This document shows positions 34,323 to 40,798 of a stretch of 46,977 nt of DNA, in pieces. The position numbers were made by a program, and so were the translations under genes. Source of the DNA: an uncultured Dehalococcoidales bacterium (GTDB taxonomy: Bacteria; Chloroflexota; Dehalococcoidia; Dehalococcoidales; BS750m-G39). The DNA lies in contig CAYWCO010000001.1 of assembly GCA_964456815.1 (NCBI GenBank), positions 1-46,977 on the forward strand, read 5' to 3'. The notes beneath the pieces are model-generated. The model had not been told where the DNA came from and made no database searches. It saw only the letters and a list, made by a program, of their open reading frames with translations. Numbering within the stretch: the first letter of the stretch is position 1; every line of letters starts with the position of its first letter.

Positions 34323-34357
34323 TTCTTAACAGGTTCTTAATATTTAGATGCTATTAT
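34323..34357 (+). promoter_or_regulatory. Box S1: TTCTTAA-cagg-TTCTTAA, 11 nt, TATTAT
   Basis: Direct 7-mers at 34323-34329 and 34334-34340; -10 at 34352-34357; 61 nt upstream of micropeptide P1. Confidence 0.6.
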
Positions 34358-34417
34358 CCATCCAGTATCCACGGAGAAGACGGCAAACAACAGCAATGAC
34401 TTGAAAGGAGTAACATT

Positions 34418-34510
34418 GTGTCTAAACGGCGTGCTCTACTCTATGCCCTACTGGGAGTGGGTATCCTTATGGTCACCGTAGGCCTAATTCTCGCCCTGTT
34501 ACAATCCTGA
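34418..34510 (+). CDS. Single-TM micropeptide P1 (30 aa)
   Basis: GTG start 7 nt after GAAAGGAG. MSKRRALLYALLGVGILMVTVGLILALLQS*. Too short for the ORF track. Confidence 0.5.
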   Translation: MSKRRALLYALLGVGILMVTVGLILALLQS

Positions 34511-34532
34511 CAAGCACAAAAATTTGCTCAAT

Positions 34533-34567
34533 ATCTTAACCGGAATTTAATATTTGATTGCTATGAT
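34533..34567 (+). promoter_or_regulatory. Box S2: ATCTTAA-ccgg-AATTTAA, 11 nt, TATGAT
   Basis: 7-mers at 34533-34539 and 34544-34550; -10 at 34562-34567. The flanks resemble S1 (tatttgattgc vs tatttagatgc). Confidence 0.55.
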
Positions 34568-34604
34568 TAAATCATCAAATAATAGAAAGGGGGGTGAAAC
34601 ATAA

Positions 34605-37269: not shown

Positions 37270-38757
37270 ATGATGTTTCCCGTCCTCTCACGGGTAAAGG
37301 AGCGGAAAGGGACAGGTGAATATAAGATGAGAATCTTAAAGCTAGGCCTAATAGCTCTTATTCTGTGCACTATTATCATCCTCCCCATAAGCTGTGGTAA
37401 AACGGCGGAAACAACTCCAGAAAGCCAACTGGTAACAGTGCAGCGAGGAGACCTAACAGTAGACATTACTGCTGCTGGCAACTTGGCATATTCCGATTAT
37501 GAGGACCTCGCTTTTCAAATATCCGGAACCTCGACGCAACAACCACTGACGGTGGAAGAAGTGCTGGTGGAAGAGGGTGATTCTGTTGAAGAGGGGCAGG
37601 TGCTAGTTAAAGCTGACACTGTCTATCTGGAGCAAGCAGTAACGACAGCAGAGCGAGCGGTCAAAACGAGTGAGATTTCCCTGGAGAAGGCGACGGATAG
37701 CTGGAGAAGTATAACCTATCCCTATACCTTTCGTGCCTTGAGCCTCGATATCCCCGCAGCTAATTCGCTTATCGGTGATGCCCTGCGGGAATTAGAAAAC
37801 GCGGTGGAAGTAATGCAGGAGTTGGGGCTGAGCCGGGAGCAATACGACTGGCACCAGTACTGGGAGGTATGGGACAACCTACAGAAAGCCCAAGACGACC
37901 TAAATGATGCTAAGGCATATACGAGGTACGGACAGGGTGCGGATCTCTTTGGTGGTTTTTTCGATACAACAACCGATGTCGGTGAACAAATCATCCCCAT
38001 GGCAGATTATTGGACACTGAGAGCTGCCCAACTGGATACGGAGACAGCCCAAGTAGCTCTAGATACGGCTAATGATAACCTGAGTCAAGCTCAAGAAAAA
38101 CTAGAAGAGGCGGTAATAGTTGCTCCATTTGCCGGTTTCATTACCATTGTAAACGTCAATGGTGGTGATGAGGTACAGAGGGGCACAGTGGCAGTGCGCC
38201 TTGTTGACCCCACCAAGTTTGAAGCCGAACTCCTGGTCAATGAGATGGATATATTTCAGCTAAAGCTGGGGGGAGATGCTACGGTGCAGATAGATGCCAT
38301 GCCAACGCTCACCCTTCCGGCTAAAGTCACCTTCATCTCGCCGACGGCTACTATTAGCTCAGGTGTAGTGAATTACACAGTCAAGATCGAAATACAGTCA
38401 GTTGAAGCAGCACCGGGAGAAGGACTGGTGCCGACGACGTTACCTGAAGACATTCAGCTCAGGGAGGGGCTGTCCGTTACCGTGAGCATCATCGTGGCGC
38501 AGAGGACTGGTGTCCTGCTGGTGCCCAATACGGCAATTACGACCCAACTAGGTCAAGCCTACGTCCAAGTGCTGACACCTAGCGGCGCCGTTGAGGAGCG
38601 CGCCATACAGACGGGCGTCAGCAACTGGCAGTATACCGAGGTGACTGAGGGTTTGAGCGAAGGCGAAGAGGTAATTGTTCCGCAGGGGACTACCACCACA
38701 ACGCCAACAACACAAGAACAAGGGGGGTCACCGCCAATGTTCTTTCCCCCACCCTAA
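37270..38757 (+). CDS. HlyD/MacA-type periplasmic adaptor, probably a lipoprotein
   Basis: Biotinyl-lipoyl-like, coiled-coil and beta-barrel pattern. The probable true start is the ATG at 37327 (AGGTGA RBS), giving MRILKLGLIALILCTIIILPISC lipobox-like. Thr/Pro-rich C-terminus. Confidence 0.85.
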   Translation: MMFPVLSRVKERKGTGEYKMRILKLGLIALILCTIIILPISCGKTAETTPESQLVTVQRGDLTVDITAAGNLAYSDYEDLAFQISGTSTQQPLTVEEVLVEEGDSVEEGQVLVKADTVYLEQAVTTAERAVKTSEISLEKATDSWRSITYPYTFRALSLDIPAANSLIGDALRELENAVEVMQELGLSREQYDWHQYWEVWDNLQKAQDDLNDAKAYTRYGQGADLFGGFFDTTTDVGEQIIPMADYWTLRAAQLDTETAQVALDTANDNLSQAQEKLEEAVIVAPFAGFITIVNVNGGDEVQRGTVAVRLVDPTKFEAELLVNEMDIFQLKLGGDATVQIDAMPTLTLPAKVTFISPTATISSGVVNYTVKIEIQSVEAAPGEGLVPTTLPEDIQLREGLSVTVSIIVAQRTGVLLVPNTAITTQLGQAYVQVLTPSGAVEERAIQTGVSNWQYTEVTEGLSEGEEVIVPQGTTTTTPTTQEQGGSPPMFFPPP

Positions 38758-38771
38758 GGAGGGCAACCCCA

Positions 38772-39440
38772 ATGATCCGATTACAGGATATAGCTAAGGT
38801 CTATCCCATGGGTAAAAGAGAGCTGGCCGTGCTCAGAGGGGTAAATCTCAACATTGAAAAGGGCGAACTGGTGGCGATTATGGGTCCCTCCGGCTCGGGC
38901 AAGACAACCCTGCTTAACCTGATTGGTTGCCTGGATCAACCGACATCCGGTAGCTACTATTTGGGGGGTAAAGAAGTCAGCCGGCTCAGCAGCGACGAGT
39001 TAGCCCAAATCAGGGCGCAGAAGATTGGTTTTGTCTTTCAGACTTTTAACCTGCTGCCACGGCTCTCGGCACTGGCAAATGTGGAGCTTGGTATGAGATA
39101 TGCTGGCGGAAGCGACCCAAAACGGGCTCTCAAGGCACTGGATAAGGTCGGACTCTCCAACCGAGCTAATCACCGTCCTACCGAGCTTTCCGGTGGGGAG
39201 CAGCAAAGAGTAGCCATAGCCCGGGCTCTGGTAAAAAGGCCTCCCCTGATTCTGGCCGACGAGCCTACCGGTAACCTAGACAGCCGCTCCGGCGAGGAGA
39301 TAATCTCCATCCTCACCTCTCTACATGCCGAGCGGGGCATTACGCTGGTCATGATAACTCATGACGCCGGCATTGCTCACCACTGCCAGCGAATCATACA
39401 CCTCAAGGATGGGCAGGTGGTGTCAGAGGAGACCGTATGA
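38772..39440 (+). CDS. MacB/LolD-type ABC ATP-binding protein
   Basis: [35 protein letters not shown]. Confidence 0.92.
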
Positions 39441-40738
39441 AAAAGTGGCTTCTGAAAAAGTGGCTAGAGCCTTTAGAGACTGCTTTGATTAGCGTTGCCA
39501 CCCGTAAGGGTGTGAAGAGGTGGTCTGAACCCTTATCAACCGCCTGGGTTGGTGTGGTTACTCATAAACTCCGTAGCTCCCTGACCATGCTTGGGATTGT
39601 CATTGGCGTAGCCGCTGTGATTAGCCTGATGTCCGTTGGGCGGGGTGCTGAGGCACAGATTATTTCCAATATTGAACAAATGGGTTCAGACCTGATAACC
39701 ATCCGTCCTGGCTCGTTCACCTTTGGCGGTGTCAGGGGTGGCGTCTCGGAAACACTAACCATAGAGGATGCAGAGACAATATCAGAACAGGTTCCCTATG
39801 TTTCAGCCGTTGCCTCTTCTTACTCAAGCAACCTGCAGCTGGTTGTGGGGGGTGAGAATATGAGTGCTACGGTCACCGGCATAACCCCCGAATATATGCA
39901 GATAAACAACATGAAGATTGCCAGTGGCGCTTCCTTCTCGGAGCAGGACTACCAGCGCGGTGCCAAGGTAGCTGTGGTCGGTACCAATGTTGCCGAAACT
40001 CTGTTTGGCAATGCTAATCCTATAGGGCAACAGATGCGGATGGGCACTATTATCGTGCATGTCATCGGTGTTCTGGAGAGCAAGGGGACCAGGTTCAACT
40101 CCCCGGATGATGCCGTCTACATCCCGCTGGCCGCCATGCAGCAAGCGGTGGCTCAGCCGCGAACCCCCCAGGGCGGCCGCATTGTGAGCACTATATCCCT
40201 GACGGTAAGTGACCAGTCACAGACACAGAATGTCATTGATACTATCACCAGCCTGCTCCGCACCAACCACAAGCTCACCGCCTCTGCTGATAACGATTTC
40301 AATATCATGTCCACAGAGGAGATAGCCAGCACTCTCTCCGAAACGATGGGCACGATGACCCTCCTTCTGGGTGCTATTGCCGCCATTTCACTGCTGGTAG
40401 GAGGCATCGGTGTGATGAACATCATGCTGGTCTCAGTGCTGGAGAGAACCAGAGAGATAGGCATCCGCAAGGCACTCGGCGCCAGGGAGCGGGACATATG
40501 GCTTCAGTTCCTTATTGAGGCAGCCTTCCTGACCTTCGCCGGGGGTATTATCGGGGTTGTCCTGGGCTGGGTAATTGCATATTTGGTCTCCAGCATGGGG
40601 TTAATGACGACTGTAGTTACTGCTGATATAGTTATCCTTGCCGTCTCAGTATCGATTTGCATTGGTCTGTTCTTTGGTTTTTATCCGGCGTGGAATGCTT
40701 CCCGACTGAATCCAATTGAAGCACTAAGAGCTGAGTGA
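39437..40738 (+). CDS. MacB/FtsX-type ABC permease (4 TM with a large extracytoplasmic domain)
   Basis: KLRSSLTMLGIVIGVAAV TM1, MacB_PCD-like domain, FtsX C-terminus. ATGA coupling with the ATPase gene. Confidence 0.9.
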   Translation: MKKWLLKKWLEPLETALISVATRKGVKRWSEPLSTAWVGVVTHKLRSSLTMLGIVIGVAAVISLMSVGRGAEAQIISNIEQMGSDLITIRPGSFTFGGVRGGVSETLTIEDAETISEQVPYVSAVASSYSSNLQLVVGGENMSATVTGITPEYMQINNMKIASGASFSEQDYQRGAKVAVVGTNVAETLFGNANPIGQQMRMGTIIVHVIGVLESKGTRFNSPDDAVYIPLAAMQQAVAQPRTPQGGRIVSTISLTVSDQSQTQNVIDTITSLLRTNHKLTASADNDFNIMSTEEIASTLSETMGTMTLLLGAIAAISLLVGGIGVMNIMLVSVLERTREIGIRKALGARERDIWLQFLIEAAFLTFAGGIIGVVLGWVIAYLVSSMGLMTTVVTADIVILAVSVSICIGLFFGFYPAWNASRLNPIEALRAE

Positions 40739-40762
40739 TGGGCGTTCAGAAAAGGATATCCG

Positions 40763-40798
40763 TTTACAACGGTTTCTTAAATGTCATGTTGACAACTT
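40763..40798 (+). promoter_or_regulatory. Box S5: TTTACAA-cggt-TTCTTAA with only a weak -10 (CAACTT)
   Basis: 7-mers at 40763-40769 and 40774-40780, 25 nt after the permease stop. No plus-strand ORF follows. Confidence 0.4.

Follow-up and report, generated by a model that had tools for sequence, protein, structure and literature searches.

Conserved direct-repeat boxes precede the genes of a two-component system, a DUF2680-like secreted protein and a MacAB-like exporter in Dehalococcoidia

When neighboring promoters share a short repeated sequence, do the repeats belong to one regulon, and which protein recognizes them? This question is raised by a stretch of 46,977 nucleotides from an uncultured Dehalococcoidales bacterium (contig CAYWCO010000001.1, positions 1 to 46,977), which was analysed at its full length and is called the window in the following. 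A sequence-only reading had described five sites of the form TTCTTAA-N4-TTCTTAA in it, here called S1 to S5, near the genes for a two-component system (TCS), a secreted protein and an ATP-binding cassette (ABC) exporter, and had interpreted them as a closed and autoregulated stress module. We find that S1–S4 are real, selected elements with one common motif, since their matrix scores, their conservation and a cross-validation between promoter classes all point the same way, whereas S5 is not a site. The four elements are quite probably bound by the OmpR/PhoB-type response regulator whose gene lies at 35164–35871, and this protein would form the center of an autoregulated regulon.

For Dehalococcoidia, a largely uncultured class, this provides a directly testable assignment of a regulator to its boxes and targets. 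It would place DUF2680, an uncharacterised family, and a MacAB-like exporter under a single sensor, and the matrix derived here can be used to annotate the regulon in metagenomes. A literature search turned up no publication about these boxes or about the system in Dehalococcoidia, and only passing mentions of DUF2680. The general view of two-component regulation is unchanged by our analysis, as boxes of this type and geometry are established, and so is the pairing of a TCS with an exporter. One lead alone is mildly novel, namely that an invariant DUF2680 partner and a clade-specific micropeptide may act as feedback components.

Four conserved boxes and their promoters

The five strings are found at the positions that had been proposed, and the listing of open reading frames (ORFs) and tRNAs in the window places all of them between genes. 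Four of them, all on the plus strand, consist of two 11-bp direct-repeat units with the core yTTAAYA: S1 at 34323–34344 (TTCTTAACAGG-TTCTTAATATT, 27.4 bits), S2 at 34533–34554 (ATCTTAACCGG-AATTTAATATT, 23.2 bits), the autoregulatory box S3 at 35106–35127 (TTTTTAACAAT-TTCTTAACATT, 30.1 bits) and S4 at 37222–37243 (ATCTTAATAAT-TTCTTAATAAT, 29.3 bits). These scores refer to a 22-nt matrix. To build it, 72 upstream regions were taken from 28 orthologous Dehalococcoidia loci, with the window excluded, and each region contributed its best site. The consensus of the matrix, ATyTTAAYAat-wTyTTAAYATT, again consists of two 11-bp units and is followed after 2–4 nt by an extended -10 element, TGnTAnnnT. 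With this ortholog-only matrix, S1–S4 reach 23–30 bits, and the next best matches in the window reach 11.7 bits; one of them corresponds to S4 read on the reverse strand, and the other falls within a 567-aa ORF. By comparison, 200 Markov-simulated windows yielded a maximum of 17.5 bits and a mean maximum of 8.9 bits. A scan of the 47-kb window with the original consensus, TTCTTAA-N4-TTCTTAA, and up to three mismatches returned 10 matches, compared to 3.3 expected and to none of 100 shuffles with as many; S2, which deviates from this consensus at four positions, was missed by it. The 11.7-bit match within the 567-aa ORF, at window position 24000, was considered as an additional site and rejected, given its location and the 0.4 matches of at least 10 bits that are expected per window.

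The fifth string did not hold up. At 40760–40780, a region without a strand assignment, we find a small hairpin with a T-rich tail behind the stop codon of the permease gene, and no box. The stem-loop CCGTTTACAACGG, with TTTCTT behind it (40760–40772), includes the first half-site of S5 and was flagged as terminator-like on both strands. S5 scores −4.5 bits, it has no counterpart 3' of the permease gene in the 13 orthologous loci examined, and the ORF list of the window contains no plus-strand genes downstream of it. We therefore treat S5 as a chance match overlapping a weak terminator.

A homolog scan with one genome per species returned 80 loci. Homologs of the kinase number in the thousands, and those named belong to Chloroflexota. 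We regard L001–L024, L028, L030–L032 and L037 as orthologous loci; they come from metagenome-assembled genomes of Dehalococcoidia and encode kinases that are 51–90% identical to that of the window. A further four loci, L025–L027 and L029, represent a more distant Chloroflexota clade, with kinases of 40–42% identity. The order of the secreted protein, regulator and kinase genes is the same in all orthologous and distant-clade loci in which the DNA is present. The operon for adaptor, ABC ATPase and permease comes next in most of them, in inverted orientation in L017 and L018, and is not found in the neighborhood of the TCS in L007, L008, L011, L016, L020 and L030.

As had been suggested as a check, the boxes are kept at the same promoters across Dehalococcoidia. 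In 27 of 27 orthologous loci, a box precedes the regulator gene, at a distance of 52–58 nt (43 nt in L024); the gene for the secreted protein has one in all 25 orthologous loci where the region is present, at 59–87 nt and in the variant form ATyTTAAYngGATTTTAAYATT. Upstream of the adaptor gene, 16 of 20 orthologous loci have a box of at least 19 bits at a distance of 76–103 nt; L017 and L018, with their inverted operons, are among them. When the upstream regions of the regulator gene are anchored on the box, the information content amounts to 1–2 bits per position in the box and the -10 element and to 0.0–0.3 bits in the flanks. The kinases encoded at these loci are 55–90% identical, and the flanking intergenic DNA cannot be aligned among orthologs. 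The box also travels with the exporter operon upon inversion (L017, position 11428; L018, position 300) or relocation. In 349 kb of orthologous loci, all matches of at least 19 bits lie at the promoters of the secreted protein or micropeptide, the regulator or the adaptor, with one exception at position 11453 of L017. The remaining loci, 525 kb in total, contain five matches of at least 16 bits, one of which is the promoter of an adaptor ortholog in L032. Finally, the promoter classes predict each other: a matrix built from the regulator-gene boxes alone recovers 19 adaptor-gene boxes of at least 12 bits, compared to 0.75 expected per 342 kb, and a matrix from the regulator and adaptor boxes assigns a median of about 14 bits to the secreted-protein class, for which random 130-nt segments have a 95th percentile of −1.6 bits.

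The proposed direct repeats with an 11-bp periodicity over the -35 region were confirmed for S1–S4, and the 11-bp register is kept in 72 orthologous sites. The second repeat ends 9–11 nt upstream of the predicted and conserved -10 element TGnTAnnnT, such that the core repeats cover about −39 to −23 when the -10 hexamer is set at −12 to −7. For S1 and S2, the -10 elements that had been placed 11 nt behind the box were correctly located and are canonical extended -10 elements: TGcTATTAT, read from the sequence and predicted for the S1 promoter, lies at 34349–34357 (+) and is also present in L001 and L037, and that of the S2 promoter, TGcTATGAT, lies at 34559–34567 (+), with TGyTAT kept in nearly all orthologs. 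At S3, the element had been misplaced. The hexamer lies 9 nt behind the box and 2 nt upstream of the claimed TAACAT, within the predicted extended -10 TGgTATAAC at 35130–35138 (+), and TGnTATAAY is conserved across orthologs. The predicted -10 of the S4 promoter, CATACT at 37251–37256 (+), agrees with the earlier assignment and is conserved as CAtACT; it is preceded by TG in most orthologs and by AG in the window. In a consensus promoter scan, none of these -10 elements was called as part of a canonical -35/-10 pair, and no -35-like hexamer is found at the proper distance.

Two other signals border on the boxes. The gene for the secreted protein ends in a strong intrinsic terminator at 35074–35103 (+), with a 13-bp stem, nine GC pairs and a subsequent TCTTTTT; its T-tract extends into the first half of S3, and a hairpin is found at this position in most orthologs. 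Box S1 begins 38 nt past the end of a tRNA-Arg gene. This gene belongs to a tRNA-His/tRNA-Arg pair at 34132–34285, directly upstream of which lies a near-consensus sigma-70 promoter, TTGAAA-17-TATAAT (11 of 12 positions; window 34085–34113, +). The two tRNAs were the only hits in an Rfam scan of 33900–41100.

The genes behind the boxes

Box S3 precedes the genes of the TCS. The response regulator of the OmpR/PhoB family (35164–35871, +) comprises a Response_reg domain (PF00072, 5e-33) and a Trans_reg_C domain (PF00486, 1e-27), and a tblastn search supports the earlier statement that it is the only OmpR-family regulator in the window. The gene for the sensor histidine kinase (35861–37204, +) overlaps that of the regulator by 11 nt. 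Judged by Pfam matches and the translation, the kinase consists of a first transmembrane segment, an extracytoplasmic loop of about 115 residues, a second transmembrane segment and HAMP, HisKA and HATPase domains. In a search against the PDB, the closest solved relatives of the regulator were MtrA (1e-60), BaeR, RpaA and RegX3. Named equivalogs for the two proteins (MtrA, PhoB, BaeR, YycF, RpaB and others) were considered and rejected, as all of them remain under the NCBIfam cut-offs; for the kinase, for example, WalK scores 292 against a cut-off of 725 and BaeS 287 against 603.

The gene behind S2 (34605–35036, +) encodes a 143-aa secreted helical protein with a signal peptide, three helices and a Gly/Pro tail, which appears to be a distant relative of DUF2680 (PF10925). 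This family is matched by 21 of 25 close homologs (52–70% identical), with a best E-value of 1.8e-6 and mostly under the gathering score. The window protein itself does not match PF10925 at E≤0.01, and a homolog from the distant clade reaches 21.8 against a cut-off of 25. The likeness to Spy/CpxP that the sequence-only reading had seen in this protein finds no support in homology, and we reject a relationship to that family: Pfam LTXXQ is not matched, only one of the 25 homologs has a weak match to Metal_resist, and there is no fold match. A Foldseek search with an AlphaFold model of modest confidence (three helices; predicted local distance difference test score, pLDDT, 61.5) returned nothing at E≤0.001, and its PDB matches did not improve on E=5. 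In all Chloroflexota orthologs, the distant clade included, the secreted protein is encoded immediately upstream of the regulator, also when the exporter lies elsewhere; the invariant partner of the TCS is this DUF2680-like protein and not the exporter.

Outside Chloroflexota, the link between DUF2680 and a TCS is represented by a single weak case. In Alkaliphilus transvaalensis (L051), a 137-aa ORF at 4311–4724 lies directly upstream of a regulator-kinase pair; it has no Pfam match and weakly matches the profile of the secreted protein, with an E-value of 2.5e-4 in a small set of ORFs. Judged by this locus, the arrangement of a small secreted protein with a TCS may extend beyond Chloroflexota.

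Box S1 is followed by a hydrophobic 30-aa ORF for a putative membrane micropeptide (34418–34510, +; VSKRRALLYALLGVGILMVTVGLILALLQS) with a GTG start codon and the ribosome-binding site GAAAGGAG. The ORF, its start codon and its ribosome-binding site are kept only in the window, L001 and L037, and in these two relatives an equivalent box lies in front of the gene (L001, position 4496, 20.4 bits; L037, position 4463, 23.2 bits). No match was found in Pfam or NCBIfam, and the coding signal is weak, with six synonymous and eight non-synonymous codon changes between the window and L001 and three genomes that carry the gene. The S1 promoter has the appearance of a second copy of that of the secreted protein, one which took over the micropeptide ORF.

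The operon behind S4 begins with a HlyD-type membrane-fusion or adaptor lipoprotein (37327–38757, +), which matches HlyD_3 at 2e-14 and HlyD_D23 and RND_mfp above their cut-offs and contains the lipobox LPISC. It is followed by a MacB/LolD-like ABC ATPase (38772–39440, +; ABC_tran, 4.5e-36), whose best NCBIfam similarity is to the ATPase part of MacB, and by a MacB-type permease of about 433 residues (39437–40738, +; MacB_PCD, 1.9e-45; FtsX, 1e-22). With its conserved gene order, the operon has the gene set of a MacB-type (type VII) exporter with an adaptor and, going by these domains, a putative export function. The likely start of the adaptor is the ATG at 37327, because the 57 nt in front of it (37270–37326) are in frame in the window, L001 and L037 and interrupted by stop codons in more distant orthologs; the start at 37270 in the ORF list is probably an artefact. 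Convergent with this operon lies a 27-aa, strongly hydrophobic ORF (window 40850–40933, −; MRTLIYVLLGVLVLALIWWALTFFGVF) with a good ribosome-binding site and no family match, which is adjoined by a gene for a MiaB-like radical-SAM (S-adenosylmethionine) protein (41016–42290, −).

Which protein binds, and to what effect

The reading of these genes as an autoregulated module stands insofar as boxes are found in front of the TCS operon itself, of the secreted protein and the micropeptide, and of the exporter; the protein that binds them and the direction of its effect we infer from linkage and geometry. Three observations suggest the encoded regulator as the binder: in the orthologous loci, it always adjoins a box at its own promoter, the boxes have a PhoB/PmrA-like geometry, with the architecture of class-II-type activator sites, and there is one case of co-variation between box and recognition helix. 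In the distant clade (L025–L027 and L029), the boxes at two of the promoters (about 5190 and about 4560) read CTTCAY-N5-CTTCAY instead of CTTAAY-N5-CTTAAY. The regulator of this clade is about 55% identical to that of the window, and its recognition helix, DRTVDAHVANLRRK, differs at four positions from the sequence DRTIDVHIL(K/N)LRRK, which is invariant elsewhere.

According to this reading, the kinase would sense an extracytoplasmic or membrane signal via its loop of about 115 residues and phosphorylate the regulator. The phosphorylated regulator would then bind the two repeats over the -35 region as a head-to-tail dimer and recruit RNA polymerase, as PhoB and PmrA do. Its own operon would thereby be transcribed more strongly, in a positive autoregulation, and so would the gene for the DUF2680-like secreted protein and the operon for the exporter with its lipoprotein adaptor, ABC ATPase and MacB-type permease. 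In the clade of the window, the 30-aa membrane peptide would also be transcribed, from the duplicated promoter. The physiological role of such a system is likely a response to envelope stress or to toxic compounds or antimicrobial peptides.

Several points weigh against binding and activation by the encoded regulator. The spacing between box and -10 element at the autoregulatory promoter differs by 2 nt from that at the others, and the co-variation of box and recognition helix represents a single clade split. The TTAAYA half-site class is common to other OmpR-family regulators, as seen in the PmrA box, in the PHO boxes of Bacillus and, on the opposite strand, in WalR sites, and another paralog in the genome could bind these boxes. 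Moreover, promoters with an extended -10 element do not always need an activator, and a box over the -35 region could equally serve for repression.

This last point leads to the alternative that survives best, in which the encoded regulator binds the boxes and acts as a repressor: the extended -10 promoters would be self-sufficient, and the regulator at −39 to −23 would keep RNA polymerase away until the signal lifts the block. All four promoters carry TGn extended -10 elements or descend from such elements, which can function without a -35 element, and the box overlaps the footprint of the polymerase. We still consider repression unlikely, since the -10 hexamers are imperfect (CATACT, TATGAT and TATAAC), the common logic in comparable systems is positive autoregulation with induction of the exporter (HssRS-HrtAB, Bce modules), and OmpR/PhoB-family regulators with direct repeats in place of the -35 element, such as PhoB and PmrA, are typically activators (PMC10570014).

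Alternatively, the boxes might belong to a different, unlinked regulator of the OmpR family, for instance a phosphate regulator, and the local TCS and exporter might be part of a larger regulon. TTAACA repeats with an 11-bp period are the PHO-box unit of Bacillus (PMC11870197), PhoB is the second-best NCBIfam match of the regulator, and a scan of metagenome contigs revealed the same pattern in L097, an unrelated contig with a GC content of 0.37. There, among the matches listed, the element TTCTTAACAACTTCTTAACAAT at 1958 (−) lies 80 nt upstream of a gene for a PstS-like phosphate-binding protein; it looks like a Bacillus-type PHO box, and its half-site class is common to phosphate regulators elsewhere. 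In the window and in 349 kb of orthologous loci, by contrast, no pst or pho genes lie next to the boxes. The box always accompanies the regulator gene and changes with its recognition helix, and the equivalog cut-offs for PhoB (TIGR02154, 237 against 296) and PhoR (TIGR02966, 213 against 334) are not reached. A foreign regulator thus appears improbable. The least probable alternative, already disfavored, is that the repeats are not protein-binding sites and instead reflect a promoter composition rich in AT, UP-like elements or an alternative sigma factor with its -35/-10 pair: the sequence is indeed AT-rich, and the palindromic TTAA lets reverse strands score weakly too, but nulls of matched composition score far lower, every base of the two 11-bp units is conserved in exact register, and the distances from the repeats to the -10 element (9–11 and 20–22 nt) do not fit a sigma spacer of 16–18 nt.

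If, as we favor, the encoded regulator binds the boxes, its regulon need not end at these promoters. That it is closed, as had been claimed, finds no support in the 47 kb of the window, which make up the whole contig, and is partly contradicted by relatives, several of which do not encode the exporter beside the TCS. The exceptional match in L017 is part of a divergent pair of boxes: one, at 11428 (−), serves the inverted adaptor-ABC operon, and the other, at 11453 (+) with 23.4 bits, precedes a secreted BNR/Sortilin-Vps10-like repeat protein, which is a candidate for a lineage-specific member of the regulon. The pattern scan of metagenome contigs yielded at least 120 loci, mostly AT-rich chance matches; among the matches listed, promoters of the secreted protein and of the adaptor were recovered. 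The listed matches also include boxes of 26–31 bits in front of a paralogous HlyD-ABC operon (L156, 5214, −; L158, 8799, +), with no TCS genes within the contig stretch. In L156, this operon encodes a 693-aa HlyD-type lipoprotein and an ABC ATPase 53–58% identical to that of the window, and a weak homolog of the secreted protein is found nearby. Furthermore, two independent metagenome contigs with GC contents of 0.50–0.55 carry a 26-bit box with an extended -10 element 150–180 nt before a gene for a secreted and C-terminally anchored DUF2330 protein (PF10092, 1e-36; L121, 1450, +; L162, 1194, +); in L162, the gene lies between housekeeping genes (GatA-like and Asd-like). These DUF2330 genes are a possible extra class of targets.

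Comparison with known systems

In its boxes, the system closely resembles PmrA/BasR of Enterobacteria, which acts at the pbgP, ugd and pmrCAB promoters. The pmra-box consists of two XTTAAY hexamers 5 nt apart that overlap the -35 element, where a dimer of the OmpR/PhoB family activates and autoregulates; PhoB occupies −25 to −41, and T187, N188, V192 and H195 have been named as the base-contacting residues of PmrA (PMC10570014). The pattern found here, yTTAAY-N5-yTTAAY on the coding strand, is formally identical. Nevertheless, the regulator is no ortholog of PmrA: BasR is its 26th–27th PDB match, at 1e-32 compared to 1e-60 for MtrA, and its recognition helix reads DRTIDVHIL, compared here unaligned with the contact residues named for PmrA. 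The phylum differs as well, and so do the targets, with an exporter and a DUF2680 protein in the place of genes for lipopolysaccharide modification.

PHO boxes are likewise 11-bp direct repeats in place of the -35 element. [quoted passage not shown] That of B. subtilis PhoP is built from TT(A/T/C)ACA units with an 11-bp period (PMC11870197), and TTAACA is one of the allowed units. The boxes described here have two units instead of four and tolerate a T where Bacillus has a C (TTAATA). Apart from the lack of neighboring pst and pho genes and the scores for PhoB and PhoR given above, the kinase differs from that of the Pho regulon in having a HAMP domain and no PAS domain. A third likeness concerns WalR/VicR, with the consensus TGTWAH-N5-TGTWAH (PMC4168254): on its reverse strand, S3 contains TGTTAA-N5-TGTTAA and matches exactly, and YycF and WalK are among the best NCBIfam similarities. 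This match lies on the opposite strand relative to the promoter, the score for YycF, 231, stays under the cut-off of 340, the targets include no cell-wall hydrolases, and the kinase lacks the PAS domains of WalK. The statement that no description of the motif exists is thus correct for this lineage, but its half-site was already known as the PmrA box and the PHO-box unit of Bacillus.

At the level of gene content, the closest parallels are systems that pair an OmpR-type TCS with an adjacent MacB-family ABC exporter. In HssRS-HrtAB and HitRS-HitPQ of Staphylococcus and Bacillus anthracis, a direct repeat in the promoter of the pump sets the specificity (PMC3968170), and HrtB is a homolog of MacB (PMC5985334). 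The Dehalococcoidia system shares this arrangement of TCS, exporter and promoter repeat; by contrast, HssRS-HrtAB and HitRS-HitPQ have neither an adaptor nor a DUF2680 partner, their repeat has a different sequence, and their signal is known (heme or envelope stress). Bce modules such as BceRS-BceAB also combine a TCS with a co-evolved ABC transporter of MacB architecture (PMC5985334). The exporter and TCS of the window are not a Bce-type module, because the permease has about 433 residues with one MacB_PCD and one FtsX domain, unlike the ten-helix BceB, the kinase has a loop of about 115 residues and a HAMP domain, unlike the intramembrane-sensing kinases of Bce modules, which lack an extracytoplasmic domain, and an adaptor is present.

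The logic of the system is comparable to that of BaeSR/CpxAR with Spy/CpxP and of PhoQ with MgrB, in that an autoregulated envelope sensor would induce a small secreted helical protein and an efflux system, here along with a micropeptide. The best similarities include BaeR and BaeS, yet the scores stay below the cut-offs (BaeR, 232 against 380; BaeS, 287 against 603; CpxR, 180 against 341; CpxA, 162 against 486), and the secreted protein is a relative of DUF2680 and not of the LTXXQ family. Feedback roles are speculative. By analogy to the action of CpxP on CpxA, the secreted protein might be an extracytoplasmic feedback modulator or a client-sensing co-sensor of the kinase, and the micropeptide might modulate the kinase or the pump in the manner of MgrB or AcrZ, a tentative idea that we consider rather doubtful. 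If true, DUF2680 would obtain its first function, and organisms whose cell envelope is unusual would have an envelope-stress circuit specific to their phylum.

Lastly, MacAB-like exporters of monoderms such as YknXYZ of B. subtilis and Spr0693–0695 of S. pneumoniae protect against antimicrobial peptides or toxins, and MacAB of E. coli and Salmonella is induced by a TCS, in E. coli by PhoPQ (PMC5985334). The three-gene set is identical to the one described here, with an adaptor, an ABC ATPase and a MacB-type permease with a periplasmic core domain; what sets the Dehalococcoidia system apart is that its adaptor is a lipoprotein and that it is accompanied by a dedicated, adjacent TCS with its own box.

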